Source: Candidatus Omnitrophota bacterium
GTDB lineage: Bacteria > Omnitrophota > Gorgyraeia > Zapsychrales > Zapsychraceae
DNA length: 64,000 nt
Assembly: GCA_015233115.1 (NCBI GenBank)
Contig: JADFYJ010000006.1
Location: 595-64,594 of the forward strand
Direction: 5' to 3'
The translations under genes were made by a program, and so were the position numbers. This document shows, one piece after another, positions 4,094 through 54,610 of the stretch (position 1 is its first letter; every line of letters begins with the position of its first letter). The notes below the pieces were generated by a model. The model was not told where the DNA came from. It made no database searches and saw only the letters and a program-made list of their open reading frames with translations.

Positions 4094-4233
4094 TTTGGCA
4101 ATTCACCAAGAAGGATGATATACTTTAGCTAAGAGATGTGAAAGGTAAACCACCCGTAAGGATGGGACACAAAGCTATAGGGCCCTGTACCAGAGGTAGA
4201 GGGTAGCCAGTTGCCGCGAGAAAAAAATTTGTG

Positions 4234-4453: not shown

Positions 4454-4840
4454 ATGAGAAGAGGACAAAAAGGTTTTACGCTGGTGGAAATCATGATCGT
4501 TGTGGCGATTATCGCGTTATTAGCCGCGATCGCGATTCCTAACTTGCTAAGAGCCAAAGTTTCGGCTAACGAAGCTTTAGCGCAAAGCACATTAAAAACA
4601 CTATCAACGTCTATTGAAACTTATACAACAGCGAATAACGGTCTTTATCCGAACGCTGAGAACTTGTTAACGGGTGCTACACCGCCATATTTGAATACGG
4701 CTTATTGCGGTCTAAGTCTTAGCGGTTACACCTATGCTTGTACTTTGGCTACCGGGGGTTACACGATTGTGGCGACTAATAATTCAACCAGCACAGGTAC
4801 CAGAACATTCACAGTTACAACAGGAGGCATTTTACGCTAA
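4454..4840 (+). CDS. pilA: Type IV major pilin (PilA-like), class III signal peptide
   Basis: N-terminus MRRGQKGFTLVEIMIVVAIIALLAAIAIP has the prepilin G|FTLVE cleavage/methylation motif. A C-terminal Cys pair forms a D-region-like loop (CGLSLSGYTYAC). The caaggagg RBS precedes the start. Confidence 0.9.
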   Translation: MRRGQKGFTLVEIMIVVAIIALLAAIAIPNLLRAKVSANEALAQSTLKTLSTSIETYTTANNGLYPNAENLLTGATPPYLNTAYCGLSLSGYTYACTLATGGYTIVATNNSTSTGTRTFTVTTGGILR

Positions 4841-8221: not shown

Positions 8222-8318
8222 CAAAACGCGTGACAGTGTAACAATGTGACAATGAAAAAGCGGTTGGTTGGAAAGGCGCATTACTTTTTTAAATAATAAA
8301 TTAAATTTGAATTAAATA

Positions 8319-12788: not shown

Positions 12789-14135
12789 ATGTCGAGAGAA
12801 ATTTTAATTCAAACGCAGAAAGGCGAAAAGCTGGTCGCTATAGTACAAGACGGACGGTTAGATGAATTTCACATTGAAGTGTCCCGTTACCAGCCGTTGT
12901 TAGGAAATATTTATAAGGGAAAAGTCGAATCTATTTTACCATCGATCAACGCCGCGTTTGTGAATATCGGGCAGGCTAAAAATGGCTTTTTGTATTTAAC
13001 GGATGTGGTGAGCCCGCGGGTTGACGCGGATCAGGAATTAGAACCGCTTAATTTTATTGAAAAGATTTTTAATCCCCAGCCAAAGGTAGAAGTCAAACCT
13101 GAGCCGCCTAAACCCTCCCCTAGATCGAATAAACGGTTTAAAAAACATTCTGGAGATTTGCCCTTGAAAGTTGGGCAGGATGTTTTGGTTCAAGTGGTCA
13201 AAGAACCGTTTGGCGAAAAAGGCGCGCGTTTGACCACGCATATCACTCTGCCGGGCCGGTTCATTGTTTATATGCCTTATGACGAGCAGGTGGGGATTTC
13301 TAAAAAAATTGAAGAAGGTGAAGAGCGGAAACGTTTGCGGGAGGTCATCGCGGGTTTAAGTTTTATTAAAAGCGGTGGTTTTATTGTGCGGACAGCTTGC
13401 AGCGGCCAGGGCAAACGGGAGCTGGTGCGCGATGCTAAATTTTTGCATGATATTTGGCAGAAGATTTTAAAAAAGTCTAAGACGGAAAAATCTCCGGTCA
13501 TGATTTATGAAGAAGGAGAATTGACCTGGAAAATGGTGCGGGATTATTTGACGGAAAAAGTGGATAAGTTGGTCATTGATTCTGAAGAGCATTATACGCG
13601 CATCCGTCAATTCGTGCAGACTTTGATCGGCCCGGAAATGGTGGGTAAGATTGAATTTTATCAGGGCAAAGAGCTTTTGTTTGAAGCCAAAAAAATCATG
13701 GATGATTTGCGTACCATTTATGAGCCGACTGTGCCGGTTAAGTCAGGCGCGTATGTGGTCATTGAGCAGACTGAAGCTCTTACGGTGATTGATGTGAACA
13801 GCGGCAGGTTTAAGACCCGGGCTTCTCCCGGAGAAGCCGCGTTTATGGTGAATATGGAAGTGGTGCCGGAAATCGCGCGGCAACTGCGTTTGCGGGATTT
13901 GGGAGGTATTATTGTCATAGATTTTATTGATATGGTCAAAGAAGATAATAAACGCCGGGTGCTGCACACGTTAAAAGAAGCCTTGGCGAAAGATTACGCC
14001 AAGACCGAAGTCTATAAAATCTCTCCGTTAGGTTTGGTTGAGATGACCAGAGAACGCAGCGGCAAAACCGTAGAATCAATATCTTTCGGCCGATGCCCCT
14101 TTTGCAGCGGGCGAGGCAGGGTAAAAATTCCTTAA
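12789..14135 (+). CDS. rng: Ribonuclease G/E family endoribonuclease
   Basis: N-terminal S1 domain (GNIYKGKV) and the RNase E/G catalytic core (…VIDVNSGRF…), with a C-terminal Zn-link-like CPFCSGRG. The gene is 448 aa. Confidence 0.85.
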   Translation: MSREILIQTQKGEKLVAIVQDGRLDEFHIEVSRYQPLLGNIYKGKVESILPSINAAFVNIGQAKNGFLYLTDVVSPRVDADQELEPLNFIEKIFNPQPKVEVKPEPPKPSPRSNKRFKKHSGDLPLKVGQDVLVQVVKEPFGEKGARLTTHITLPGRFIVYMPYDEQVGISKKIEEGEERKRLREVIAGLSFIKSGGFIVRTACSGQGKRELVRDAKFLHDIWQKILKKSKTEKSPVMIYEEGELTWKMVRDYLTEKVDKLVIDSEEHYTRIRQFVQTLIGPEMVGKIEFYQGKELLFEAKKIMDDLRTIYEPTVPVKSGAYVVIEQTEALTVIDVNSGRFKTRASPGEAAFMVNMEVVPEIARQLRLRDLGGIIVIDFIDMVKEDNKRRVLHTLKEALAKDYAKTEVYKISPLGLVEMTRERSGKTVESISFGRCPFCSGRGRVKIP

Positions 14136-14137
14136 AA

Positions 14138-14172
14138 GTGACAGAGTAACCGAGTAACCGAGTAACAGAGTG
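14138..14172. repeat. Family-A tandem octamer block (GTGACAGA GTAACCGA GTAACCGA GTAACAGA)
   Basis: Directly follows the rng stop. Its inverted partner lies at 14327..14366. Confidence 0.8.
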
Positions 14173-14231
14173 AAAAGAAAAGCGATTGATGGGAAAAAAA
14201 TCTACTTTGTTTACTCTGTACTTTTTTCCTC

Positions 14232-14260
14232 TTGACGAAAAGGGATCTATTGCTTATACT
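14232..14260 (+). promoter_or_regulatory. sigma70-like promoter for rplU
   Basis: TTGACG, a 17-nt spacer, then TATACT. It lies between an inverted pair of family-A repeats. Confidence 0.5.
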
Positions 14261-14326
14261 TGGCAAACGATAAATTACGGCAAGACTAATTAGGTTCAGA
14301 GATTTTCCTATATTTTTTGTTTTTTT

Positions 14327-14366
14327 CTCTGTTACTTTGTTACTCGGTTACTTTGTCACTTAACAA
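14327..14366. repeat. Family-A block, reverse orientation (CTCTGTTACTTTGTTACTCGGTTACTTTGTCAC)
   Basis: Reverse complement of the block at 14138. It lies in the rplU 5' leader. Confidence 0.8.
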
Positions 14367-14387
14367 AATTTACTATGGAGGCAGTTT

Positions 14388-14696
14388 ATGTTTGCAGTTG
14401 TTAAAATCGGATCTGAACAATTTAAGGTTTCTGAAGGTGATTTGATCGAAGTGAATCGTCTTCCGGAAGACGCTGGAAAAGAAATTCAGCTGGATGTGTT
14501 AGCTTATGAAAACGGCACAGATGTGCGTTTTGGCCAGCCGTATTTGAAAGATGTTAAAGTTGCGGCTGCGGTTAAGGAAAACACGCGAGGAGAACGTGTA
14601 ATCGCGTTTAAATTTCGTAAACGTACCAATTGGAAAAAAATCCACGGACACCGCGCTGATTTGACAGCGTTGAATATTATTAAAATTCAGGGGTAA
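14388..14696 (+). CDS. rplU: 50S ribosomal protein L21
   Basis: MFAVVKIGSEQFKVSEGDLIEV is a typical L21 N-terminus. A ggagg RBS precedes it. Confidence 0.9.
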   Translation: MFAVVKIGSEQFKVSEGDLIEVNRLPEDAGKEIQLDVLAYENGTDVRFGQPYLKDVKVAAAVKENTRGERVIAFKFRKRTNWKKIHGHRADLTALNIIKIQG

Positions 14697-14767
14697 AATT
14701 TATTTTACCGGTTGATGGTTGATAGTTTTTGATTTTTGGAAGAAGCGATAGCTTCCTAAATCTTAAA

Positions 14768-14810
14768 AATTCCGGTTGGCCTTCATGGGGAAAACCGGAA
14801 TTTCTTTTTA
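14768..14810 (+). terminator. Rho-independent terminator after rplU
   Basis: Stem aattccggtt/aaccggaatt followed by a T-rich run. Confidence 0.65.
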
Positions 14811-14822
14811 ATTGAATCTTTA

Positions 14823-14866
14823 AAAGTAACAGAGTAACCGAGTAACAAAGTAACAGAGCAACAGAA
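14823..14866. repeat. Family-A block (forward)
   Basis: aaagtaacagagtaaccgagtaacaaagtaacagagcaacag, located after the rplU terminator. Confidence 0.8.
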
Positions 14867-14937
14867 TAAAAAACTAATATTAAGGCTGTTACTTTGATTT
14901 TGTTTTTTACAAGTATTGTTTTTTTGTAATCTTTTTT

Positions 14938-14978
14938 TGTGCTCTGTTACTCGGTCACTTTGTTACTTTGTTACTTTA
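14938..14978. repeat. Family-A block (reverse)
   Basis: gtgctctgttactcggtcactttgttactttgttacttt, located before obg. Confidence 0.8.
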
Positions 14979-15006
14979 TGGGTAAAAAATTAACGATAGG
15001 TTTAAT

Positions 15007-16005
15007 ATGTTGTTCGTCGACGAAACAATTATAAAAATTAAGGCCGGTGACGGCGGGCAGGGGTGCGAGAGTTTTTATCGCGATTTGTCGCGCGCGCCTA
15101 TGGCGGATGGCGGTGACGGCGGCAAAGGCGGGGATATTATTATTGAGGCTTCACGCTCGCATCACACGCTTTTGGATTTTAAATATCAACAGAATTATAA
15201 AGCGTCCAAAGGCGGGAATGCCAGCAGTAATAACAAAACCGGGCGTAAGGGCGAAGACCGTATACTTAAAGTTCCGGTTGGAACTATTATCCGTGATGCG
15301 GAAACCGGGCTGGTGATTAAAGATATGACCGAAGACGGCCAGCAGATTATTATCGCGAAAGGCGGGCATGGTGGCATAGGGAATCAATATAAGCATACGC
15401 CTAAACCTGCCGTGCCGGGTGAAGAACATCGAATTCTGCTCGAACTTAAAGTCATGGCAGATGTGGGATTAGTTGGTTTTCCGAATGTGGGGAAATCGAC
15501 TATTATTTCCGCGATTTCGAAAGTCAGATCTCCGGTAGCCAATTATCCTTTTACCACGAAACAGCCGATTTTAGGCATTGTGCAGGATGAATTGGATGAG
15601 AAATTGGATTTTGTGGTGGCTGATCTTCCCGGTATTATTGAAGGCGCGCATGACGGACGGGGTTTAGGCGACAGGTTTTTACGCCACGCGGAACGCACCA
15701 AGATTTTGGTCCATGTGCTGGATATGTCAGGGTCTGAAGGTCGTGACCCTCTAGAGGATTTTGAAAAATTAAATCATGAATTGAATTCATACGGAGAAAC
15801 ATTGCCGTTTAAAAGCCAGATTGTGGTAGCTAACAAGATGGACTTACCTGAAGCAAAAAATCATTTAAAACGTTTTAAAAAGCATTATAATGAAGCCATT
15901 ATTGCTGTTTCAGCAAAGGATAAAAAGGGATTAGACCAGCTAGTGAAAGAGATCCGTGCCGTCCTATGTCAAGAACGTTCCTCAGAAAAATCAAAAGAGT
16001 CATAG
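15007..16005 (+). CDS. obg: GTPase Obg (ObgE/CgtA), short form without C-terminal TGS/OCT domain
   Basis: Obg-fold Gly-rich N-domain (GDGGQGC, GGDGGKGGD) and GTPase motifs GFPNVGKST, DLPG and NKMD. Confidence 0.9.
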   Translation: MLFVDETIIKIKAGDGGQGCESFYRDLSRAPMADGGDGGKGGDIIIEASRSHHTLLDFKYQQNYKASKGGNASSNNKTGRKGEDRILKVPVGTIIRDAETGLVIKDMTEDGQQIIIAKGGHGGIGNQYKHTPKPAVPGEEHRILLELKVMADVGLVGFPNVGKSTIISAISKVRSPVANYPFTTKQPILGIVQDELDEKLDFVVADLPGIIEGAHDGRGLGDRFLRHAERTKILVHVLDMSGSEGRDPLEDFEKLNHELNSYGETLPFKSQIVVANKMDLPEAKNHLKRFKKHYNEAIIAVSAKDKKGLDQLVKEIRAVLCQERSSEKSKES

Positions 16006-16751
16006 TTAAAGTCGGCTCAGGCTTAATCGCCAATGAGCAATTTAAGCCAAGTAATACCCGCCTGCGCCGTTTGGTGGAACAGATATGTTCTGCGCAAAAA
16101 CGTGGCTATGAAGTTGTGTTAGTCTCTTCCGGCGCCATAGCATTGGGTATGGGCGAGATGCAATGTAAAAAGCGTCCGTCTGAATTATCCCAGCTACAAG
16201 CTTATGCTTCCACAGGCCAAGCTATTCTCATGCGCAAATATAATGATTTATTCCATAAATATAATTCCAAATGTGGACAAATACTTTTAACTTGGGATGA
16301 TTTTCGTAATGATTCACGTCATAAAAATGTCCGCCAGACCATCAAGACCATGTTGTCGTGGGGTGTGGTGCCGATCATTAATGAAAATGATTCAGTTTCC
16401 AACGATGAAATTAAATTCGGAGACAACGATAAATTATCCGCTTTAGTGGCCAGCTGTGTAGACGCGGATTTATTGCTTATTTTGTCGGATGTGGACGGTT
16501 TATATGACATGCGCACTCCGGATAAAAAATTATATCGTGAAGTAAAAGAGATCACGCAGGAAATAGAAAGTGTGGCTGGCGGTTCAGTTAACAAAAATGT
16601 GTCCAAAGGCGGTATGAAATCTAAAATTGACGCGATCAAAATCGCGACCGCATCCAAGGTAGCCTGTGTGATCGCGCACGGCCAGACTGAAAATATTTTA
16701 AACCGCGTTTTAGATGGGGAAAATATCGGAACATATTTTTACGAAAAATAA
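15966..16751 (+). CDS. proB: Glutamate 5-kinase (no PUA domain)
   Basis: VKVGSGLIAN... amino-acid kinase fold motifs. The gene is 261 aa and overlaps the obg 3' end. Confidence 0.8.
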   Translation: MSRTFLRKIKRVIVKVGSGLIANEQFKPSNTRLRRLVEQICSAQKRGYEVVLVSSGAIALGMGEMQCKKRPSELSQLQAYASTGQAILMRKYNDLFHKYNSKCGQILLTWDDFRNDSRHKNVRQTIKTMLSWGVVPIINENDSVSNDEIKFGDNDKLSALVASCVDADLLLILSDVDGLYDMRTPDKKLYREVKEITQEIESVAGGSVNKNVSKGGMKSKIDAIKIATASKVACVIAHGQTENILNRVLDGENIGTYFYEK

Positions 16752-16756
16752 AACGT

Positions 16757-21205: not shown

Positions 21206-24200
21206 ATGTCTCAATTTCGTTTTAGTTTTTGGACTAAATTGGTGTGTTCTTTTTTGTCAGTGATTTTTGCCTTGCAATGCGTTTATCCTTTGCAAGCCGC
21301 GAAAGCTGATGTCTTAACCCTTCCGGCTCCTGGATCAATGGTCAGCATGAGTCCGGCATTCGTTCCAACTTTATTGCGCGGCATGACTGTTCATCCTGAT
21401 AATCCGCTTCGCTTTGATTTTATTTTAGATAAGGGCGAAGCGGAGTCACAAGGTCACAAAGACACAAGGTCACAAAGGGAAATAAGAATTGAAACGGAAA
21501 AGTTGGTAAATTATTTCCTCGCGTCTATGACAGTTCCAGAAAAAGATTTATGGGTCAATCTTTCCCCGAACGAACCAAACCGGATTGTTTCCAAAGATTT
21601 AGGCAAAACTGAAATGGGCCGGGATTTGCTGGCTCAAGATTATATCCTAAAACAATTAACGGCTTCTTTAATGCAGCCGGATGGAGAAGCAGGCAGGGAA
21701 TTGTGGTCCAGAATTTATGAACGGGCTAAAAAAGAATTAAACACGACAGATATCCCTTTAGACACTTTTAACAAAGTCTGGATCCTGCCCGAAAGCGCGA
21801 CCATTTACGAACACAACAATACCGTCTATATCACAGACGCGAAATTGAAGGTTATGACAGATAGTGATTATAATACTAGTTTTAAACAAACTGTCATTCC
21901 CGCGAAAGCGGGAATCCAATTAACTTCTTTAATTAAAAAAATTATCATCCCCGAAATCGAAAAAGAAGTGAACACCGGCAAAAATTTTGCCCAGCTTCGC
22001 CAGATTTATTATTCACTCATTCTCGCCAAATGGTACAAAGACGTAGTCCGAAACAGTCTGCTTGAGAAAGTGTATATTGGAAAAAATAAAGTCGACGGCC
22101 TTGATTTAAACCCAAACCAAACACTTTCTCCGGCCAATATTTACAAACAATACATGTCCGCCTTCAAACAAGGCGTTTACAACAAAATTAAAGAAGAATA
22201 CGACCCCCAAACTCAGCAAATCATAGCCCGAAAATATTTTTCCGGCGGGTTTCAAGACACGGCCATGACCATTAAACAAGCCGACGCAGCGCAGATTACT
22301 CAGGCGCAAGAAGGCGAACAAAGTAGTGTGGCCGTCACATTAGACAACATTTCTGTAAGTCAAGAACCAGAAATAACTGAAAAAAATTTAAATGATTCTG
22401 AACGGATTATTTATAATAAAATTCAATTTCCTGTTTCTCCGGCACTTATCAGAGAAATTAAGAAGAGTAAGAAATTAGCCGAGACATTTTGTCTAATAAC
22501 TGGTATGGAGAAAAATGATTCGTTGCTGGCACAATTTTTGTTGTTTCATTTGTTTATCCGTATGTCAAAAGCAGAAGAGGGAGCTGTTGCAAATGAATTT
22601 TATTCATCGGCAGGTTTATTAAATCCATCTTATCAAGAAAGGCTGCCGGACGAATTAAGAAAAGATCCTCTTAAAGTGTTAAATGATTTTTTAACTGAAA
22701 CTGGGAGGGAAGAACTGCGTGCTAAGAATTTTGAAAATTGGGATGACTTCAAAGATTATTTGCTGAAAACTGATCAAGAGCCGTTATGGGAAATTTTTCA
22801 AGAATGGGTTGCTGCGCTGCCATATCGGAAATTTTTTGAGTTAGCGCATATTGAAAAAGCAGCGCAGTTTTTAAGTACCCGTCCGGATATGGTCCCTGAA
22901 GGTTTCCGGGAATCATTTGAAGTATTTCAAGACCGTGGAAAACCTGCGCCGATCGAAGAAATCGTGTCTGTTGTTGAAGATAATTATGGTCCTTTGGAAA
23001 ATTTATGTGAGAAGCGGCAGGATATCAAGGAAGGAGATAATCCTTATTTAAAACGGCTTAATGTGGGTACTGTCGCCGATACATTTTTGGTGACTTTAAA
23101 GAATGGTCAGCAGGAAGCTTGGAAAATCGTGGCTCCAAGCAAAGAAGCAAAGATTCGTCAAGGTCTTGAAACGCTGCGGGAAGTTATGGGTGAACTCGAA
23201 AAAAACAAAGTTTTTTTTGCCGGCAATGAAACTATCCGGTTATCCCCTGTAAGATTTTTTAAGGAATTTGAAAAAGCAGTGCTCAGAGAACTGGATATGA
23301 ATACTGAAGCAAAGCAGGCACGCGATATGATCCCTCATTTTCCAAAAGGGTTTGCTAAACCTGAAATTAGAGAAAGTAAAAAGCAGATCCTTCGCATGGG
23401 TTTTATCAATGGAACTAAAATAACTTTAGTTACGGACACTGAAATTAGAAAACGCCTAGCGAAAAAGATATTGCCTTTAATTGGTTTACAGGCGTTAGGA
23501 GATGAAATTTTTCATGCGGATCCCCACCCGGGAAATATTTTTTATATTGAAGAAACCGGTGAGATTGTTCTTTTTGATTTTGGTCAGGTGGGGTATTTGA
23601 CGAAGTCCGTGCGAAGGGATTTGGTAAATTTGGCGGTTCAAATTTTACAGCATAGAGAGCAGCGCGGTTTACATCAGGTCATGTACCATGCTATAGGGAA
23701 AATTTTACAATCCAAAATTGCTGCGAAAATGGCAAGATGGGGTTTATTTAATTATTATTGGTATCAAGAGCAAAAAAATCAGAAGAGACCCCAATCTAGC
23801 CCGGATTCAATCCGAAAAACAGAAAATCGACAGAAAGATCACGAATCTGAAATATCATTTGAATCCACCTTGGACTTTGATGATGTGCTTAAAAAAATGG
23901 TTGAAACGACACCCCTTAATATTGATGAAATTTTGGATTTTCTTGAGTTAAAAGGGATACAGAATACAGGATATAACCGTGACAGTTTACACGCAAAAAT
24001 ATCTGAAATCCTCACATCAAAAAGTATTCAAGGGTGGAAAGAGCAACAGCCTTATATTATGGTTGACCGCCTTGTGTATGAAGCAGAAGCTCTTGGGTTG
24101 ATTATTCAGACGCCATATTCTTCCATCATATCGCATATAATGACGTTTGCTCATAAATATGCAGATATGGACGACAATATTGAAGCGGATGAGATCGGAT

Positions 24201-25441
24201 TTAAAACCGAAGTCTCTTCAATTCTGAGATTCCGAAGGGAAGGCGAAAGCATTTTTCCTGTTGTACACCGCATCTTTTTAGCCGCAGACCGGTTTGGATA
24301 TCCGATATTGTCATCTGCCTCAATGCTGATCAAATCCTTACTTTTAGCCGAAGGCGTCCAACGGACGCTGAAACAAAATTTGGAAGGCAGGAATGATTCA
24401 AACGATTCAGCCATGACCATCAAACACGCCGACGCCGCGCAGATAACCCGTGCACAAGTAGGCGAACAAAGTCGAGGCAAAGTTACATTGTCTGATCATG
24501 CGATGCAACAAATTATTTTACCGGATTACGCTGGCAATTTAGACCCATTAGCCTTAGGTGAAAAGCCTAGGAAAGTGATTGAATTAATGCGGAAGGGGCT
24601 CAATGTTCCGAAATTTTTTGTCATAAAATCTAATGGGACGGGAAAACTGGAAATTACAGATGAATTAAGGCGGGTTTTTGATTCTTTTAAAAAACCGGTT
24701 ATTGTCCGCAGTGCGCATCCTATGGAAGGCGGCGAACATCCCTTTCCTGGTATATTTAACAGTTACTCAGCAGTCAGTTATTTGGCTTTCGAAGATATTC
24801 CTGATGGTATACGGCCTGATGCCGAGGGCAAATGGGATAAAGATCCATTAAGCGTTGATTGGGCATATGAAGATATGGTGGAAACAGCATCACCAGATTG
24901 GAATGATAAATTAGATAAATATTTGAAAGCCAATGCTATTAAAGATTTTGATCCAAAAGCAATGGATGCGGTTTTGATGGAACAAGTTGACGTGGAAGTG
25001 TTTGGTATGTTTTTTACAGAAAGCCAAATCCATCCTAATAAAATTGAGATTCGTTATATTATCCCAGACACAAATGATGGCGGAATTATATTGTTTGATA
25101 AAACAACTCAATCACTCGAAGAAAATTCTTTACCACAACGTATCCAGGAAGTTCTTACGGAATTTGGAAAAACTGCGCAAAAGATTCATGACATATATGG
25201 TTTTCAACAAATTGAGTTAGCGTCTTCTAAAATTGATAAAAAGGTTTATGTTTTTCAATCCAGAAATTTTCCTATTGGCGATCCAAACAACGTGGCTCGT
25301 TATCCTGAATATCAAACCATCATGACGCCTAATGCGGTACTTGGTTATGGTGATTATAATCTGCCGGTTATAGTTTTAGATGGGTTAGATAGTGTCACAA
25401 AATATAAGGAAGATCCAAAATATCGAGCCTTGAGTGAATAA
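21206..25441 (+). CDS. Giant multidomain protein: signal peptide/anchor + unknown N-domain + UbiB/ABC1-type atypical kinase domain + PPDK_N/PEP-utilising-enzyme ATP-grasp-like domain; internal repeats
   Basis: N-terminus MSQFRFSFWTKLVCSFLSVIFALQCVYPLQAAKA is signal-like. The ABC1/UbiB hallmarks LSTRPDMVP, AWKIVAP (Lys), HADPHPGNIFY and DFG are present. At the C-terminus, ...NVPKFFVIKSNG... and KPVIVRSAHPMEGGEHPFPGIFNSYSAV resemble PPDK_N VAVRSSAxxEDxxxxSFAGQ. The motif SAMTIK[QH]ADAAQIT appears twice. Confidence 0.6.
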   Translation: MSQFRFSFWTKLVCSFLSVIFALQCVYPLQAAKADVLTLPAPGSMVSMSPAFVPTLLRGMTVHPDNPLRFDFILDKGEAESQGHKDTRSQREIRIETEKLVNYFLASMTVPEKDLWVNLSPNEPNRIVSKDLGKTEMGRDLLAQDYILKQLTASLMQPDGEAGRELWSRIYERAKKELNTTDIPLDTFNKVWILPESATIYEHNNTVYITDAKLKVMTDSDYNTSFKQTVIPAKAGIQLTSLIKKIIIPEIEKEVNTGKNFAQLRQIYYSLILAKWYKDVVRNSLLEKVYIGKNKVDGLDLNPNQTLSPANIYKQYMSAFKQGVYNKIKEEYDPQTQQIIARKYFSGGFQDTAMTIKQADAAQITQAQEGEQSSVAVTLDNISVSQEPEITEKNLNDSERIIYNKIQFPVSPALIREIKKSKKLAETFCLITGMEKNDSLLAQFLLFHLFIRMSKAEEGAVANEFYSSAGLLNPSYQERLPDELRKDPLKVLNDFLTETGREELRAKNFENWDDFKDYLLKTDQEPLWEIFQEWVAALPYRKFFELAHIEKAAQFLSTRPDMVPEGFRESFEVFQDRGKPAPIEEIVSVVEDNYGPLENLCEKRQDIKEGDNPYLKRLNVGTVADTFLVTLKNGQQEAWKIVAPSKEAKIRQGLETLREVMGELEKNKVFFAGNETIRLSPVRFFKEFEKAVLRELDMNTEAKQARDMIPHFPKGFAKPEIRESKKQILRMGFINGTKITLVTDTEIRKRLAKKILPLIGLQALGDEIFHADPHPGNIFYIEETGEIVLFDFGQVGYLTKSVRRDLVNLAVQILQHREQRGLHQVMYHAIGKILQSKIAAKMARWGLFNYYWYQEQKNQKRPQSSPDSIRKTENRQKDHESEISFESTLDFDDVLKKMVETTPLNIDEILDFLELKGIQNTGYNRDSLHAKISEILTSKSIQGWKEQQPYIMVDRLVYEAEALGLIIQTPYSSIISHIMTFAHKYADMDDNIEADEIGFKTEVSSILRFRREGESIFPVVHRIFLAADRFGYPILSSASMLIKSLLLAEGVQRTLKQNLEGRNDSNDSAMTIKHADAAQITRAQVGEQSRGKVTLSDHAMQQIILPDYAGNLDPLALGEKPRKVIELMRKGLNVPKFFVIKSNGTGKLEITDELRRVFDSFKKPVIVRSAHPMEGGEHPFPGIFNSYSAVSYLAFEDIPDGIRPDAEGKWDKDPLSVDWAYEDMVETASPDWNDKLDKYLKANAIKDFDPKAMDAVLMEQVDVEVFGMFFTESQIHPNKIEIRYIIPDTNDGGIILFDKTTQSLEENSLPQRIQEVLTEFGKTAQKIHDIYGFQQIELASSKIDKKVYVFQSRNFPIGDPNNVARYPEYQTIMTPNAVLGYGDYNLPVIVLDGLDSVTKYKEDPKYRALSE

Positions 25442-28400
25442 TTGGTCCTCGCGAGAAGAAGTGGTGAAATCGAAAAGGAAAGACGACTAAGTGATTTGAA
25501 TGAAAATCTAATAGATCAAGCCCGGGAAAAATATAGAGAAGAATTGAGGAGATTTATTAGTAAACATCCAGAATATATTCTTGTCATTAAAGACGCGGAG
25601 GATTTAGCTTATTATCCTGCTGGTGATGATATTTGGACTACCAAAAATTATTCTTTTGTAAATGAACTCTCTGCCAAAGCCAAGGTCGTTATTAAAGGAA
25701 AGTACCAAAATGCAATTCGCCATGAAGATTGGGATAACATTGAGATGGGCGGGATTGTCATTGAACCGAAACAGGATGATCGGGTTATGAAAGCATTTTT
25801 TAGTACAAAGCCGGACTCATTTAAAGAAGAACCCACTTGGGTTATAGGTAAAACAGATAATATAAAAAAATTAGGTGTCAAAAGAATTCACACGGGGGAT
25901 TTTCTACATGTTTTATCAAATACAGATGGTTGTTTTATTTGGTATGGGGAAGAGGAGCATCGGGATTCAGCCATGATCATTAAGCAAGCCGATAAAGCTA
26001 TGGTTAAAAAGGGATCAGTTAATGAACAACAAAAGCTGATTACAGTGGAATTGGCTGACTATTCAATGAATTCGCTTTCTGACATTGAGGGTGTTGGCAG
26101 CATTTCATCTGCGATTAAAGATAAATATTTAAGTTCTGCGATGGAGCAGCAATTCATTATGTTAAAGAAGCGGCTTCCGAATCTGGACGTAACAAGTTTA
26201 TTATTATTTTACGGGAGAATTCTTGGCTTCCTCAATACCAGAACGCCCAAAAATCAGGAACGGTTTGATTTTTTACCAATTCCGGAATTTATTAAGCAAG
26301 AGGTTTTTGCCGCAAAAAATATTAAGGATTATAAGGAAGGGATGTACGTAGTAGAAGAAACTTTGAAGCGTTACGAAAAACAAGTATTTTTCGATAGCCC
26401 TTACTGGCTTGATAAAGTTATGAAAAACGTAAAAATAAATGGTGGCGCATCCGGTGAAATTATATTAAGGGATTTACTCGTGCTTATGAGGAGAGGTGTT
26501 TTTGCCTATTTATCCCAGTATCTCTACAGAATAGGCGGTGCCTCATCCATTACAGAATTGTTACAGGAACGTCACTACACGAAAGTATCTATGCCTCACA
26601 TTGGTGGTCAAGAACAGTTTCTTCCTGTAAGTGAGTTAGTTCCAATACAAGATATTTTAGAAAAATATCACTTGGATTCTGAAGGAAAACCTATTGGTAG
26701 CGTAAAAGACAAGGCCATGTCAAGTAAGGTTGCCGCTTTTAACCCTTCCTTTATATTAAAAATGCGTCTGGCTGTTTCTATGCTGCCGAATGTTCAAAAA
26801 GGTGAATATAGCCGGGAAGCGTTTATAAATCATTTGGATTTGCCTGATATTTATGAGCAGGCATTTGCCATTGCGAATCCGGGTAAAATTTTACAGGAAG
26901 AGGACCGTAAAAGATTACAGCAGTTGTCTTTGCATGTAACGCAGGTATTAACGGCTTGGCTGGATCAGCGTACGAAAATTCCGGATGATTCAATGGTGTG
27001 GTTGTTAAGCATTATTTTTCATGATGTCGGCAAAGTGGTTGCTTTGCAAAATCATGAAGAGTTAAGTGATAAATTTTTAACGGAAAACCTGGTTATTGAA
27101 AAATTTGTTGCGAGCGGATTGATTAACACGAAGCAGGCGGATCTGATTAAATTGCTGGTGCGGTATCATTTGCCTTTGGGCCTTATGTTTATGGGAGAAA
27201 TGAACTTTAATGATTGGAAAGATTTTTTCCGCGATGCCCGATTAAGAACTTTAGTGAAACAAGGGGTGCTTTTAAAAGACATTTTACAGCAAATTAAACG
27301 CATCACATTTTTTGATCAAACCGCGTATTCTCCAGCGGCCCCTTTCAAAACAGTTTTACAATTTCAGGATGAAATTATTGAGCAGTTAAGCGAGATAGAT
27401 ATTGACGCGAATGATATCGATGCAAAATTGGATGTTATGAGCGCTGATTTTATTAAGTCAAGGATCAAGGGTTTGGTGAGTTGGGGGGATATTAATTTAG
27501 ATCAGCCTAAGGTTTATTATGATGAATTGATGCGGAATGTGATATATCGTTTTAAGACCATTGAACCTGGTTTTGATTCTACAAGAATGTATCATGTATT
27601 ATCGCGAATAAATTTACGTCAATTTTGTATTATTGCCGCGTCTTTAGCTTGGGTCGCAGAACAGCCTAATAGTTTTGAAGAGTTTGTTCCTGCCGCGGAA
27701 AATTTTCGTAACATATCTGCAGGCGCGCAAATAAATGTCAATTTTGTAAAATTGCTTTCTGTTATAGTGTCGCAGGTTAAAACTGTGAATTTTTCTCATG
27801 TGGTGATCGAAGGTTCAGACGGCCAGGCTCCCAGCCGGGTTGTTGCGGATGATCCTTACCAGTTTGCAAAGTTTGTTTATGAATTAAATAATATTTTGAG
27901 TAAAGAACAGTCCGTGGACCAGCAGGGCAATAACTTTTTCTTTTTGGATGAACACGGACAGCGGCTGAGTGATATAACCAGAATGGTTATTGACGAGCAG
28001 GCAGCAACATTAAAAATTATCATTGATAGCGGGACGACGGCTGTGAAAAATGAACAAAAACAGGAGCCGGTTGTTGCTCAACCCGAGATCGAACAGCATC
28101 CGGGGGAGTTAATTCCGTTCAATCGCGCGAAGATTAATCCACTACTCACGACCATGCAAACCGTTAAGTTAAGCTTTTTGCCGGCAGGGCAAAGCATCCT
28201 GTTCAATGTGAGCGGCACGATAACACATTTTGTGGATTTTAGTGTTGGAGATCCTGACGATAAAAGGTTTATTATTACGATTCTACCGGAGGATGAACCG
28301 GAAGAAAAAGCATACATTTTAACAGTAGGAAATGTTGATACTGATGTCGAAGGAACAGCCGCTCAATTAAAAATAGTTGATTCCGCAGTACTTTCTGACG

Positions 28401-28630
28401 TTGGTGGTATTGATATGACCAAGGTTGGGTTTAAGCGGGAAGCAAGCCCTGCATCCCACGTGGTGCAGGGTAAACATGAAATTATTTTTAATTTTGACCC
28501 GGCCATGCTGGAACAATTTCAATCTGGAAATTTCAAAAGTTTTCAGGCTGTTATCACAAATGTGACGCCTTTGCCAAGCGTCCTGCCGCTTTTGGGTTTA
28601 TCGCTGGATAAAAAGAATAAGGCTGGTTAG
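25442..28630 (+). CDS. Second large ORF in the same frame (separated from the previous ORF by a single TAA): HD-domain phosphohydrolase-containing multidomain protein
   Basis: It continues the frame of 21206..25441 immediately after the TAA. The HD signature is ...WLLSIIFHDVGKVV... with downstream His/Asp. A third copy of the SAMIIKQADKA repeat is present. The true start is unclear; the track shows a TTG directly after the stop. Confidence 0.5.
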   Translation: MVLARRSGEIEKERRLSDLNENLIDQAREKYREELRRFISKHPEYILVIKDAEDLAYYPAGDDIWTTKNYSFVNELSAKAKVVIKGKYQNAIRHEDWDNIEMGGIVIEPKQDDRVMKAFFSTKPDSFKEEPTWVIGKTDNIKKLGVKRIHTGDFLHVLSNTDGCFIWYGEEEHRDSAMIIKQADKAMVKKGSVNEQQKLITVELADYSMNSLSDIEGVGSISSAIKDKYLSSAMEQQFIMLKKRLPNLDVTSLLLFYGRILGFLNTRTPKNQERFDFLPIPEFIKQEVFAAKNIKDYKEGMYVVEETLKRYEKQVFFDSPYWLDKVMKNVKINGGASGEIILRDLLVLMRRGVFAYLSQYLYRIGGASSITELLQERHYTKVSMPHIGGQEQFLPVSELVPIQDILEKYHLDSEGKPIGSVKDKAMSSKVAAFNPSFILKMRLAVSMLPNVQKGEYSREAFINHLDLPDIYEQAFAIANPGKILQEEDRKRLQQLSLHVTQVLTAWLDQRTKIPDDSMVWLLSIIFHDVGKVVALQNHEELSDKFLTENLVIEKFVASGLINTKQADLIKLLVRYHLPLGLMFMGEMNFNDWKDFFRDARLRTLVKQGVLLKDILQQIKRITFFDQTAYSPAAPFKTVLQFQDEIIEQLSEIDIDANDIDAKLDVMSADFIKSRIKGLVSWGDINLDQPKVYYDELMRNVIYRFKTIEPGFDSTRMYHVLSRINLRQFCIIAASLAWVAEQPNSFEEFVPAAENFRNISAGAQINVNFVKLLSVIVSQVKTVNFSHVVIEGSDGQAPSRVVADDPYQFAKFVYELNNILSKEQSVDQQGNNFFFLDEHGQRLSDITRMVIDEQAATLKIIIDSGTTAVKNEQKQEPVVAQPEIEQHPGELIPFNRAKINPLLTTMQTVKLSFLPAGQSILFNVSGTITHFVDFSVGDPDDKRFIITILPEDEPEEKAYILTVGNVDTDVEGTAAQLKIVDSAVLSDVGGIDMTKVGFKREASPASHVVQGKHEIIFNFDPAMLEQFQSGNFKSFQAVITNVTPLPSVLPLLGLSLDKKNKAG

Positions 28631-30350: not shown

Positions 30351-30383
30351 TAGTATGTAGTATGTGGTATGTCGTATGTAGTG
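30351..30383. repeat. Family-B block (forward)
   Basis: tagtatgtagtatgtggtatgtcgtatgtagtg, located after the rpsA stop. Confidence 0.8.
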
Positions 30384-30579
30384 AAAAAGCAATTGATTGT
30401 GAAATAATAAATATATTAGAGCAAATATAGATAAAAAGCGTTGTGTGAAACGTATAGAAATTTTAGTCTGTTTAAAATATTTTTAAAAAATTTTGATTTC
30501 TATTTTTATTTATATTTAGGCTTTACGATATAACTAAGTATTACTTCATTTTGCTTGTTTTTTAAAAATTTTATTTTTA

Positions 30580-30610
30580 CGACATACCACATACGACATA
30601 CTACATACTA
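30580..30610. repeat. Family-B block (reverse)
   Basis: cgacataccacatacgacatactacatact. It ends 8 nt before the tyrS ATG. Confidence 0.8.
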
Positions 30611-30618
30611 TTTATTTT

Positions 30619-35030: not shown

Positions 35031-35068
35031 TTGATGGTTGTTGGTTGATGGTTGTTAGTTTTGGTTAA
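35031..35068. repeat. Family-C block (forward)
   Basis: ttgatggttgttggttgatggttgttagttttggttaa, located after the rplL stop. Confidence 0.75.
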
Positions 35069-35100
35069 AGCATTGGAGTTGTTTAAAATAAGCGCTTTTT

Positions 35101-35130
35101 CCAAAAACTATAAACTTCCAACTAAAACCC
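35101..35130. repeat. Family-C block (reverse)
   Basis: ccaaaaactataaacttccaactaaaaccc, located before rpoB. Confidence 0.65.
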
Positions 35131-35198
35131 CCGATATTATGTTTCAGGTGATGTTAATTTAATCAAACCAATACCGAACGGTTAAGATCGCCATATAT

Positions 35199-43778: not shown

Positions 43779-45872
43779 ATGGCTAAGACACCACTTATAG
43801 ATTATCGTAACATTGGGATCATTGCCCATATCGACGCGGGTAAAACCACGACGACTGAGCGTATTTTGTATTACACCGGCGTTATCCATAAAATGGGTAA
43901 TATCGATGATGGTAATACCGCTATGGATTGGATGGAGCAGGAACAAGAGCGCGGGATCACGATTACCTCGGCGAGTACCGTTTGTTTTTGGAAAGGCAAG
44001 CAGATCAATCTGATCGATACTCCCGGACACGTTGATTTTACGATGGAAGTCGAGCGTTCATTAAAAGTTTTGGACGGAGCGGTTGTGGTTTTGTGCGGAA
44101 CCAGCGGTGTTCAACCTCAAACCGAAACTGTCTGGCGTCAAGCTGACCGCTATAGTGTTCCCCGTATTTTATTCGTTAATAAATTAGACCGTTTAGGTGC
44201 GAATTTTGAGCGCGTTATTGATGAGAGTCACGAACGCTTAGGCGCAAATTCTGCCGCGATTCAGCTTCCGGATGGCCACGAAGACCAATTTCATGGCATT
44301 ATTGATATTATTGAAGAAAAATATTACGTATATAAAGATGATGCGGGCGAAGACATTGATACTTTACCTGTTCCGGAAAAATTTAAAGCTAAAGTCGCTG
44401 AGATGAGGCACAAATTGCTGGAACGTTTGTCAGACGCTGATGATATGATTATGGAGAGATTTTTAGAAGAAAAACCGGTAACGGTTGAAGAAATCAAGAG
44501 TGCTATCCGCCGCGGTGTTATTGCTTGTACGTTTGTCCCAGTTCTTTGCGGTACCGCATTGCGCAATAAAGGAGTTCAATTTGTTTTAGATGCTGTGACT
44601 GAATATTTACCTTCTCCGTTAGATATTCCTCCGGTTAAAGGAATTAATCCTTCTTCTAAAGAAGAAGAACTTCGTGCTCCAGATCCTGCCGCTCCTTTTT
44701 CAGGATTAGTTTTCAAAATTGCCACAGATCCTTACGTTGGTAAATTATTTTATACTCGTATTTATTCCGGAACAGTTAATTCTGGAGATTCAGTTTGGAA
44801 CGCGTCTGAGGGATGTAAAGAACGTATTTCTAAAATGGTTTTGATGCACGCCAACCGTCAGGAAATTGTTCCTTCTGTATCAGCCGGAGATATTATCGCT
44901 TTGGTAGGTTTAAAAGATAGCAAAACCGGAACCTCTTTGTGCGATCAAACTAAGAAAATTTTACTTGAGAATATGCGTATTCCTGAACCGGTTGTTTCCA
45001 TGTCGATTGAGCCAAAAACTAAAGCTGACTCAGACCGCATGGGTATGGTATTAAAGAAATTTCTCGATGAAGATCCTTCCTTACGTTGCACCTATAATCA
45101 TGAAACCGCTCAAAGTATTATTTCTGGTATGGGCGAGCTTCATTTGGAAATTATCATTGATCGTATGAAACGCGAATTTAATTTGGAGACGAGTGTAGGC
45201 CGTCCTGAAGTTGCTTATAAAGAGACTGTCCAGCGTAAAGTAACGGGTGTAGTGGGTAAACACATTGCCCAATCTGGCGGACGCGGTCAATATGGTCACT
45301 GTGTTATTGATATTGAACCTCAGGAAGTCAGAGGAACTGGTTATCAATTCGTTGATATGATTAAAGGTGGCGCGATTCCTCGTGAATTTATTAAATGCGT
45401 TGATGAAGGTTTACGCATGGGTTTGACTAGCGGTATTTTAGCCGGATACCCGGTTGTGGATATAAAAGTTACTCTTGTGGATGGTTCTTATCACGATGTT
45501 GACTCTAATGAGCTGGCTTTTCAGTTAGCCGCCAAAAACGCACTTAAAGATGCTTTAGCAAAAGCTGGTTCTATTTTCCTTGAGCCGATTATGGATATCG
45601 AAGTGGTAGCTCCGGAAGAATACATGAGCTCCGCGATCGGCGACTTGAATCAGCGCCGTGCTAAAATTTTAAGTTTAGGTCAACGCGGCCATTTGAAAGT
45701 GACCCGATGCGAGGTTCCTCTTTCAGAGATGTTTAATTACGTGAATGCATTACGTTCGTTATCACAAGGACGCGCGACATATACGATGGAACCAAAGTTT
45801 TACGATGTTGTTCCAAAATTCATAGCTGATAAAATTATCGGCGAAAGAACAGCGTCTGGACATAAAAGATAG
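43779..45872 (+). CDS. fusA: Elongation factor G
   Basis: [16 protein letters not shown]1 motif. It is 697 aa. Confidence 0.97.
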
Positions 45873-45904
45873 TGACAGAGTAACCGAGTAACCGAGTAAC
45901 CGAG
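45872..45904. repeat. Family-A block (forward)
   Basis: agtgacagagtaaccgagtaaccgagtaaccgag. It starts at the fusA stop codon. Confidence 0.8.
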
Positions 45905-46095
45905 AAAAAGCGGTTGGTGAAAAGCGAATGGTGAAAGCGTTGGCGTATAAAAAGTGATTAGGTTTTAAAAAATATATTATTTGATTAAAATTAAAGTTTG
46001 GTTTTTTTTGTTTATGTTTGGTAATTATTATTCGATTTGTTGTTTTGTTCTTTGGTAAAATAATTTTTTTGTTGTTAGTTATTTGTTATTTTTTT

Positions 46096-46130
46096 ACTTT
46101 GTTACTCGGTTACATGGTTACTTTGTTACT
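46096..46130. repeat. Family-A block (reverse)
   Basis: ctttgttactcggttacatggttactttgttact, in the tuf leader. Confidence 0.8.
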
Positions 46131-46163
46131 AATATTTTTTCCAAATAAAAAGGAGGCAGTCAC

Positions 46164-52508: not shown

Positions 52509-52590
52509 GTAGTATGTAGTGCGTAGTATGTCGTATGTAGAAAAAGAAAAATAATAAAAGCTGTATGTCGTGCGCAGTATTAAGTATGTA
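52509..52590. repeat. Family-B blocks (forward, two copies)
   Basis: gtagtatgtagtgcgtagtatgtcgtatgtag and a degenerate copy ctgtatgtcgtgcgcagtattaagtatgta, located after the rpsQ stop. Confidence 0.75.
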
Positions 52591-52610
52591 AAAAAGATAC
52601 GTTTTTAAAA

Positions 52611-52640
52611 CCACATACCACATACCACATACCACATACT
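52611..52640. repeat. Family-B block (reverse)
   Basis: ccacataccacataccacataccacatact, located before rplN. Confidence 0.8.
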
Positions 52641-52656
52641 CTACAAAAGGTTACTT

Positions 52657-54117: not shown

Positions 54118-54513
54118 ATGTCATTAAGTGATCCGATTAGTAATTTTTTAACAAATGTCCGAAACGCCATCAAAGTCCGTAAAGAAACGGTTGATGTTCC
54201 TGCGTCAAAATTAGTGGGAAAAATCCTTGAAATATTCAAGGCGGATGGCTACATCGAAGATTTCCGTTTGATGAAGGATAATGTGCAGGGCACATACAAG
54301 ATTTATTTGAAATATCAGGGAAAAGCTTCCGCCATTACTGGGTTGAAGCGTATTTCAAAACCAGGTTTAAGAGTTTATGTTCAACGAGACGAAATTCCAA
54401 AAGTATTGAACGGTTTAGGTACGGCAGTCATTTCAACGTCCAAAGGCGTGGTGACCAACCGTGAAGCTAAAAAGTTAAGTGCCGGCGGAGAAGTCTTATG
54501 TTACATTTGGTAG
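54118..54513 (+). CDS. rpsH: 30S ribosomal protein S8
   Basis: MSLSDPISNFLTNVRNA. Confidence 0.95.
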   Translation: MSLSDPISNFLTNVRNAIKVRKETVDVPASKLVGKILEIFKADGYIEDFRLMKDNVQGTYKIYLKYQGKASAITGLKRISKPGLRVYVQRDEIPKVLNGLGTAVISTSKGVVTNREAKKLSAGGEVLCYIW

Positions 54514-54610
54514 GCCGTTCGCGGGAGCTCACGGCACTACTTCGGACATTTCGTCCTCGGTCGGCCGTTCGCAGGAGCTCACGGCACTACTTCGGACATT
54601 GCGTCCTCGG
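54513..54610. repeat. Direct tandem repeat, 2 x 48 nt (period 50) between rpsH and rplF
   Basis: ggccgttcgc[g/a]ggagctcacggcactacttcggacatt[t/g]cgtcctcgg x2. It begins at the last base of the rpsH stop codon. Confidence 0.9.

Follow-up and report, generated by a model that had tools for sequence, protein, structure and literature searches.

Inverted pairs of simple-sequence arrays at the cistron junctions of a Candidatus Omnitrophota genome as possible palindromic extragenic elements

Tandem repeats with units of 5–11 nt are sporadically abundant in bacteria, heptamers being the commonest, according to the summary of Mrazek (2007) given in PMC4679880. A cyanobacterial example of such short tandemly repeated repetitive (STRR) sequences is provided by the ttgtcag and ctgac arrays in the hupS–asr0689 spacer of Nostoc (PMC2408588). 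In marine Beggiatoaceae, cyanobacteria, and Bacteroidetes, direct repeats of the heptamer TAACTGA have been described that precede start codons (169 direct sets and one indirect), and for the arrays of Beggiatoaceae it was proposed that they are read by an RNA-binding protein (PMC4679880). Two repetitive extragenic palindromic (REP) sequences in inverted orientation make up a hairpin-forming doublet that behaves as one mobile unit, the REPIN, which is mobilized by REP-associated tyrosine transposases (RAYTs) (PMC3116915). Correia elements carry promoters and bind RNase III or are cut by it (PMC2649163). In a 64-kb stretch of one Candidatus Omnitrophota genome (hereafter the window, to which all counts of arrays, pairs, and elements refer), arrays of 7–8-nt units occur as inverted pairs between the cistrons of rng–rplU–obg, fusA–tuf, and other genes. 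The octamer arrays of family A had originally been predicted to bracket the promoters of rplU and obg. They are considered here as terminal arms, inverted with respect to each other, of small extragenic elements of palindromic structure that are co-transcribed and self-folding; such elements would have arisen in a lineage-specific burst of the kind known for REPINs or MITEs (transposable elements of the miniature inverted-repeat type) and would be plausible RNase III or stability sites; this account is held tentatively, at slightly short of even confidence.

All genes of the window lie on the + strand, with a GC skew of about +0.15 throughout. The gene of an Rne/Rng-family RNase, rng (12789–14135, +), is followed by rplU, encoding L21 (14388–14696, +), and obg, encoding Obg (15007–16005, +). 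Each of the two spacers holds a pair of family A (A1 and A2, respectively), and a third pair, A3, separates fusA from tuf. The unit of this family is the octamer AGTAACNN, which forms forward arrays of the pattern (R)AGTAAC(MR) with their reverse complements downstream. Over-representation of a family was expressed as the number of pattern matches in the window against the mean expected number, obtained for family A from 100 shuffles. The two-unit octamer pattern is matched 20 times against 0.09 expected, with none of the 100 shuffles reaching 20, and the octamer blocks and reverse complements originally reported around rplU and obg are thus borne out. On the arrays, Tandem Repeats Finder gives a period of 7 or 8 and 3.5–6.8 copies. 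The features of these loci are as follows.

14137–14172, + strand: 5′ arm of A1, AGTGACAG AGTAACCG AGTAACCG AGTAACAG AGTG, beginning 1 nt past the rng stop codon (14133–14135)
14173–14192, + strand: internal motif of A1, GAAAAGAAAAGCGATTGATGG (consensus GAAAAAGCGRTTGRTGG), adjoining the 5′ arm
14232–14260, + strand: sigma-70-like promoter in the loop of A1, TTGACG-17-TATACT, 10/12
14327–14366, + strand: 3′ arm of A1, reverse complement of the octamer array, ending 21 nt upstream of the rplU ATG (14388), with a GGAGG ribosome-binding site (RBS) in between
14709–14765, + strand: G/T-rich hairpin resembling family B, 3′ of rplU and upstream of the A2 pair
14771–14810, + strand: canonical intrinsic terminator 3′ of rplU, UUCCGGUU...AACCGGAAUUUCUUUUU, also upstream of the A2 pair
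14823–14866, + strand: 5′ arm of A2, an octamer array with one variant GCAAC unit
14938–14978, + strand: 3′ arm of A2, ending 28 nt upstream of the obg ATG (15007)
45871–45904, + strand: 5′ arm of A3, overlapping the fusA stop codon (45870–45872), with 30 nt identical to the 5′ arm of A1
46093–46131, + strand: 3′ arm of A3, followed by AATATTTTTT and ending 32 nt upstream of the tuf ATG (46164)

No inverted repeats in the 64 kb are longer than the arm pairs of A1 and A2 (46 nt at 85% and 55 nt at 75% complementarity). Their arm duplexes are predicted to comprise 36–39 Watson–Crick pairs plus three G–U pairs and to reach −59.6 and −50.2 kcal/mol, and the predicted folding energy of read-through RNA is −90.8 kcal/mol for the whole rng–rplU spacer (z −9.2) and −95 kcal/mol for the whole rplU–obg spacer (z −8.2).

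Family A is accompanied in the window by two families of heptamers. Family C (TATGTNG) is matched 15 times against 0.07 expected and forms three pairs, and family B (TTGRTGG and TTGGTTT) is matched 8 times against 0.38 expected and forms two. The census as a whole amounts to at least eight inverted pairs and one single array, D, with at least three arm families in addition to D. All 17 arms are intergenic, in agreement with the original prediction that the arms are paired at cistron junctions. That prediction had overlooked what lies beyond rplU and obg, namely, the third A pair and the five heptamer pairs; the latter are listed below along with D.

211–369, + strand: B1, upstream of nuoF; 5′ arm 211–258 (TTGGTTT/TTAATGG units), 3′ arm 336–369 (AAACCAT units)
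2133–2318, + strand: C2, between nuoF and a [FeFe] hydrogenase gene; 5′ arm 2133–2158 (TATGTNG units), 3′ arm 2286–2318; the interior holds an A-tract/stem/T-tract hairpin at 2157–2247
8230–8254, + strand: D, an A-like octamer array without a partner, GTGACAGT GTAACAAT GTGACAAT followed by GAAAAAGCGGTTGGTTGG, beginning 8 nt past a stop codon
30351–30611, + strand: C1, between rpsA and tyrS; 5′ arm 30351–30383 (TAGTATG units), a 194-nt loop, 3′ arm 30578–30611, followed by TTTATTTT, which directly abuts the tyrS ATG (30619)
35031–35134, + strand: B2, between rplL and rpoB; 5′ arm 35031–35066 (TTGATGG/TTGTTGG units), 3′ arm 35103–35134; predicted hairpin −29 kcal/mol, z −3.5
52509–52643, + strand: C3, between rpsQ and rplN; 5′ arm 52509–52541, a degenerate second copy 52562–52591, 3′ arm 52610–52643 ((ACCACAT)x4.3)

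Despite their unrelated units, the elements share one layout, in which the stop codon is followed by a purine/G-rich arm, in some cases by the motif GAAAAAGCGRTTGRTGG, by an A-rich half, a T-rich half, and a G-poor arm, and then by the RBS region and the start codon. Each arm has 3–5 units and a length of 26–48 nt, the aligned pairs are 75–96% complementary, the spacers measure 36–194 nt, and whole elements measure roughly 100–270 bp. The 5′ arm begins between −2 and +8 nt relative to the upstream stop codon in eight of the nine elements, and the end of the 3′ arm is 7–64 nt from the next start codon in all pairs (7–33 nt in 7/8). The purine/G-rich arm comes first and its G-poor complement second in all eight pairs, and this polarity is a property of the element itself, regardless of the strand that is read. 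The interiors show the same A-rich left and T-rich right halves in all copies, so that the whole spacer is an imperfect palindrome. The head-to-tail 7–8-nt units exceed chance and are located in non-coding DNA, as expected for simple-sequence or STRR repeats; the one similar array in coding DNA (21445–21475) is an in-frame peptide repeat.

The motif GAAAAAGCGRTTGRTGG, which is not repetitive in itself, is found 3′ of the 5′ arm in A1, A3, C1, C2, and D (positions 8256, 14178, 30385, and 45906–45945, with a variant at 2157). In the fusA–tuf element A3 it is present in three tandem copies with a period of about 14 nt. The exact sequence AAAAGCRNTTGRT has four matches in the window, all of them no more than 10 nt past 5′ arms and in elements of three arm families; with one mismatch allowed, 16 matches are found against 3.6 expected. 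The complement of GAAAAAGCGRTTGRTGG is not conserved beside the second arm.

On the sense strand, whole elements are predicted to fold at −29 to −88 kcal/mol. Their arm duplexes would contain 24–39 Watson–Crick pairs and 1–4 G–U pairs, a length that by prediction is sufficient for RNase III, which requires double-stranded RNA that is nearly continuous over some 20 bp or more. The original suggestion that read-through RNA folds the two arms together therefore stands as a prediction, with a near-perfect basal stem of 30–45 bp that would in principle be long enough for this enzyme. Taken by themselves, the 5′ halves have no significant fold (z −1.0 to +1.3); the 3′ arms are poor in G. Sense RNA is predicted to be more stable than antisense RNA for seven of the eight whole elements; when the arms alone are considered, the sense strand is favored in five elements and the antisense strand in two, with one tie. 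The sense-strand excess is compatible with tolerance of G–U pairs in the mRNA. The asymmetry between G–U and A–C mismatches was also considered as a pointer to the functional strand; it was set aside as weak evidence, being confounded by strand mutation bias.

A terminator scan called no intrinsic terminator at any of the pairs, whose loops of 36–194 nt are not compact, and a U-run 3′ of the 3′ arm is found in only two of the eight, C1 (TTTATTTT) and A3 (AATATTTTTT). In A1 and A2, a degenerate proximal 3′ arm with a T-run was considered as a possible internal terminator and rejected as a general feature, the folds being weak (z about −1). The C1 copy may have assumed an attenuator or terminator role, because in relatives the T-run of a canonical terminator abuts the tyrS ATG in exactly the same way. 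The rpsA–tyrS spacer ends in a hairpin and a T-run abutting the tyrS start in loci L124 (17599–17672), L126 (17737–17811), and L128 (17717–17777) and in the window (30578–30618). This leaves no space for a promoter or a Shine–Dalgarno sequence in front of tyrS, the expression of which may depend on attenuator read-through.

The comparison with relatives covered six syntenic Omnitrophota loci, namely, L001, which represents the nearest other genome (Obg 87% identical to that of the window), L124, L126, and L128 (Obg about 66%), and L130 and L131 (elongation factor EF-G about 75%). Gene order is the same in the relatives, and the junctions are short there (0–133 nt) in comparison with 153–310 nt in the window.

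rng–rplU junction: 252 nt in the window; 71, 133, 32, and 27 nt in relatives
rplU–obg junction: 310 nt in the window; 111, 16, 33, and 33 nt in relatives
fusA–tuf junction: 291 nt in the window; 39 and 69 nt in relatives
rpsA–tyrS junction: 271 nt in the window; 74, 75, and 61 nt in relatives
rpsQ–rplN junction: 153 nt in the window; the genes overlap in a relative

No inverted pairs of 7–8-mer arrays were found in about 118 kb of the six relatives. Absence from the relatives, together with the short junctions there, indicates that the elements are recent, labile additions in the lineage of the window, and the occupied junctions were not ancestral operon boundaries. At the rplU–obg junction of L001 there is a compact terminator hairpin, in which a (TAAGAGG)x3.6 stem faces a degenerate complement and is followed by a T-run (−27.8 kcal/mol, z −5.7). 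The gene rpmA (L27) is absent between rplU and obg both in the window (14697–15006) and in L001, L124, L126, and L128, the common order being rplU–rpmA–obg. Rfam at gathering thresholds gives no family matches at or near the elements.

The octamer array by itself is a common simple repeat. A metagenome scan for AGTAACMRAGTAACMRAGTAAC gave more than 120 loci with a GC content of 0.24–0.69, mostly unpaired and microsatellite-like, with an inverted partner in only about 10; viral contigs yielded 31 loci with this pattern, all of them unpaired. At one metagenomic locus (L054, contig Ga0308157_10000177, GC 0.35, from an unrelated organism), inverted AAGTAACA arrays extend an A9-stem-T9 bidirectional terminator (2864–2966) between convergent ybaB-like and threonine-aldolase-like genes, so that each transcript meets a purine-rich arm just past its stop codon. 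This arrangement is a compact form of the same bracket idea.

With respect to promoters, sites were scored by matches to the 12 sigma-70 consensus positions, and those with at least 10/12 were considered strong. The predicted TTGACG-17-TATACT site inside the rplU pair is present and strong, and a transcript starting there would, as had been proposed, carry only the 3′ arm. The statement that each pair encloses a sigma-70-like promoter holds for the rplU pair and fails for the obg pair, where no site reaches 9/12. Apart from A1 and A2, none of the other six loops has a site of at least 10/12, two or three have only 9/12, which is expected in AT-rich DNA, and the remaining ones have none. A1 is the only one of the eight loops with a strong match, and promoter bracketing is not a common feature of the pairs. 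Specificity to translation-apparatus genes was not confirmed either, the elements also flanking nuoF and the [FeFe] hydrogenase gene, and a single DNA-binding regulator is hard to reconcile with unit sequences of at least three unrelated kinds and with periods of both 7 and 8 nt. A conserved regulator is likewise unsupported, since all six syntenic relatives, the one with 87% identical Obg included, lack the elements; absence from close relatives had originally been named among the refuting observations. The octamer brackets do not constitute dedicated regulators of the rplU and obg promoters. The rplU promoter was also considered as an ortholog of a promoter in L001, with which it shares by eye CTTGACGAAA and TAT..T.GGCA; the local alignment of the two spacers is non-significant (p about 0.18) and in a different register, so this candidate was rejected, and it is not claimed that the promoter predates the arms.

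Under the interpretation preferred here, the elements would have entered the cistron junctions by insertion or by copying from one locus to another, these junctions being short in all the relatives compared. Since all surrounding genes have the same direction, each element should be transcribed within a polycistronic mRNA, where it would fold back on itself, the 30–45 bp basal stem closing off the whole insertion. Predicted accessibility of the start region with and without the 5′ arm shows no consistent direction of change; with the insertion closed off in this way, it would be tolerable, and the hairpin probably sequesters the insertion rather than the RBS. The long duplex would be a plausible RNase III site or exonuclease barrier that separates the fates of neighboring cistrons. 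Single copies may have been co-opted, as suggested by the promoter in the rplU loop and by the U-run, a terminator-like end, before tyrS and tuf. Copying between loci is indicated by the 30 identical nt of the A1 and A3 5′ arms, which include the variant first unit GTGAC, by the presence of families A and C in three copies each, and by the occurrence of one adjacent motif beside different arm families.

A number of observations weigh against this interpretation. In contrast to classical MITEs, A1, A2, and A3 have interiors that give no alignment with one another, and only the motif of about 15 nt by the 5′ arm is shared. Target-site duplications were not found by eye at the arm ends of A1, A2, and A3, and no transposase, recombinase, or RAYT gene is located within the 64-kb window. 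Pair-specific covariation was not found; an arm fits the partners from other copies just as well as its own partner, and thus there is no support for selection on pairing. The arm duplexes of C2 and C3 are more stable on the antisense strand, and strand-biased C-to-T mutation, suggested by the GC skew, could equally yield the excess of stability on the sense strand. A2 lies downstream of the canonical rplU terminator (14771–14810), so its 5′ arm may rarely be transcribed. Finally, the elements are carried by one genome only.

Among the alternatives, the elements may be purpose-built insulators, essentially as originally proposed; the arms with a downstream U-run would act as a split terminator or an RNase III site that stops or cuts transcripts coming from the upstream gene, transcripts from a promoter in the loop, carrying the 3′ arm only, would escape, and little space would be needed to insulate neighboring cistrons. 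The strong promoter of A1, the U-runs behind the 3′ arms of C1 and A3, and the A-rich and T-rich halves, which would allow co-transcriptional zipping of the hairpin, are all in line with this, and the canonical terminator found at rpsA–tyrS in three relatives, with its T-run abutting the tyrS ATG, implies that C1 stands where relatives have a conserved terminator or attenuator. It is still unlikely as a general explanation, given one loop in eight with a strong promoter, two 3′ arms in eight with a U-run, and loops far from those of known intrinsic terminators; C3, moreover, is located within the S10–spc ribosomal protein cluster and has no promoter, so that termination at this site would shut the downstream genes off from transcription, and relatives with the same gene order lack the elements. 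Somewhat less probable than insulation is functionless growth in place, by which hairpin or terminator stems were lengthened through slippage of 7–8-nt units while template switching kept the arms complementary. The (TAAGAGG)x3.6 stem of the L001 rplU–obg terminator and the AAGTAACA arrays on both sides of the L054 terminator would fit such growth. Slippage is a known source of long simple-sequence repeats of 5–11 nt, which appear sporadically (PMC4679880), and unpaired AGTAACNN microsatellites are common in metagenomes and viral contigs. Independent slippage, however, would not give one and the same 30-nt arm, GTGAC variant included, at A1 and A3, nor three copies each of A and C, nor GAAAAAGCGRTTGRTGG beside arms of different families, and where the genes overlap or are less than 40 nt apart in relatives, there was no hairpin from which growth could start.

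The arrays could also bind a protein, either a DNA-looping regulator or an RNA-binder of the S1, Csp, or CsrA type recognizing the single-stranded G-poor 3′ arm near the RBS. This would suit the 3′ arms, which are G-poor, predicted to be unstructured alone, and located 7–33 nt before the start codon in seven pairs of eight, as well as the constant position of the purine-rich arm in front, and it has a published parallel in the TAACTGA arrays upstream of start codons, including those of ribosomal protein operons (PMC4679880). Nevertheless, it appears improbable, because at least three unrelated units with two periods (7 and 8 nt) would require several specificities, relatives having the same genes lack the arrays, and no candidate binding protein was identified. 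For a binder of duplex DNA, a contiguous 7–8-bp periodicity is at odds with helical phasing. Least credible, to the point of being nearly dismissed, are invertons, in which a recombinase would flip a promoter segment between the inverted repeats and so switch the downstream gene. Repeats of 30–45 bp around segments of 36–194 bp, one of them with a promoter, fit such a scheme superficially, whereas the genes that would be switched, such as rplU, tuf, rpoB, and rplN, are essential for housekeeping, seven of the eight loops have no strong promoter, the window contains no recombinase gene, and three or more arm families would require several recombinases; in addition, the A-rich/T-rich polarity is constant in all copies, which frequent flipping would not keep.

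A bolder proposal, considered doubtful, is that evolvable simple-sequence inverted repeats (A–D) on a conserved GAAAAAGCGRTTGRTGG core constitute an undescribed non-autonomous mobile class, placed with precision between stop codon and RBS by an enzyme and adopted as modular operon punctuation, i.e., as a split terminator or RNase III insulator whose loop can accommodate a promoter. If this were true, once-compact operons, including the S10–spc cluster, would have been split into separately processed or promoted units.

Other extragenic repeats are present in the window as well. GC-rich REPIN-like doublets (TCGTAGGGGCGATCTCCTGATCGCCCG...), each arm of which is a small palindrome, are located at 16756–16788/16822–16854 and 18796–18825/18850–18887, where they fill the proB–proA and nadD–PGM spacers; the first pair is predicted to fold at −62.9 kcal/mol (z −13.4), and the nadD–PGM spacer measures 287 nt in the window vs. 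15 nt in L001. The lineage of the window appears generally permissive to hairpin-forming extragenic elements. The product of proB (15966–16751) consists of the amino-acid kinase domain only (261 aa), while that of the relatives has 362–363 aa with a C-terminal PUA domain, and the REPIN-like doublet begins directly past the shortened gene. A GC-rich element of 50 nt, GGCCGTTCGCAGGAGCTCACGGCACTACTTCGGACATTKCGTCCTCGG, is present in two tandem copies between rpsH and rplF (54509–54610), and a copy about 90% identical is located downstream of proB in L001 (12070–12122), where it is flanked by GTGTC octamer arrays. GGCCGTTCGCAGGAGCTCACGGCACTACTTCGGACATTKCGTCCTCGG is a dispersed repeat conserved across genomes, and it has no Rfam match.

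Two further loci of the window deserve mention. A c-di-GMP-I riboswitch aptamer (4134–4218, +; RF01051, 58.7 bits vs. a gathering score of 35) precedes a pilin-like gene (4454–4840), the product of which has an N-terminal methylation motif, at the head of a type II secretion/pilus cluster. Between plsC and rpsA there are two very large open reading frames (21206–28630), of which the first encodes 1411 aa and includes an ABC1 atypical-kinase-like domain, while the second, of 1062 aa, has no Pfam match; in relatives, rpsA directly follows plsC. The 1411-aa frame holds the in-frame octamer-like repeat at 21445–21475.

If the preferred interpretation of the paired arrays is correct, many of the tightest operon junctions (rng–rplU–obg, fusA–tuf, rplL–rpoB, and rpsQ–rplN) have been pried open by self-folding palindromes. 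They would then represent a natural experiment on how much non-coding insertion is tolerated by polycistronic mRNAs of essential genes, and also on the origin of new terminators, processing sites, and promoters between genes. For annotation, it would follow that long spacers and 'promoter brackets' in this genome should not be taken for conserved regulatory regions.

A full-text literature search found no paper joining Omnitrophota with intergenic tandem repeats, and the elements have to be compared with systems described in other bacteria. Like STRR and long simple-sequence repeats, they consist of 7–8-nt head-to-tail units, are intergenic, comprise several families per genome, and are sporadically distributed, and in STRR, too, arrays of opposite orientation can share one spacer. 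Unlike STRR, the arrays of the window have an inverted partner 36–194 nt away in eight of the nine elements, are short (3–5 units), abut stop codons, carry a non-repetitive motif 3′ of several 5′ arms, and belong to an Omnitrophota host. They share with the TAACTGA arrays the short heptamer arrays a few nt before start codons, ribosomal protein operons included, the lineage-specific occurrence, and a suspected post-transcriptional role. The TAACTGA arrays, however, are almost all single and direct and overlap the RBS position, whereas those of the window form inverted pairs with the first arm abutting the preceding stop codon.

The likeness to REPINs consists in the inverted repeats with a less conserved spacer, the predicted single hairpin, the extragenic location, the multiple copies of several families, and the doublet as the unit. 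The arms of REP sequences are small GC-rich palindromes, whereas the arms in the window are non-palindromic tandem arrays, and hence not REP sequences, around longer, AT-rich spacers. With Correia elements (NEMIS) of Neisseria and other bacterial MITEs the elements have in common a size of 100–270 bp, terminal inverted repeats, a position beside genes, and long hairpins (PMC2649163, PMC10969869). Correia elements possess a conserved core, fixed non-repetitive inverted repeats of 26 bp, and a TA target duplication, whereas those of the window have unrelated interiors, simple-sequence arms, and no visible duplication; the functional picture of Correia elements (co-transcription, promoters, and RNase III) is the one first proposed for the brackets in the window. 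Taken together, the elements conform to the definition of simple-sequence repeats and lack defining features of REPINs, MITEs, intrinsic terminators, and invertons. If they are what they are supposed to be here, they link two poorly understood classes of repeats, STRR and other simple-sequence arrays on the one hand and the hairpins of REPINs and MITEs on the other, and extend both to an uncultivated phylum.

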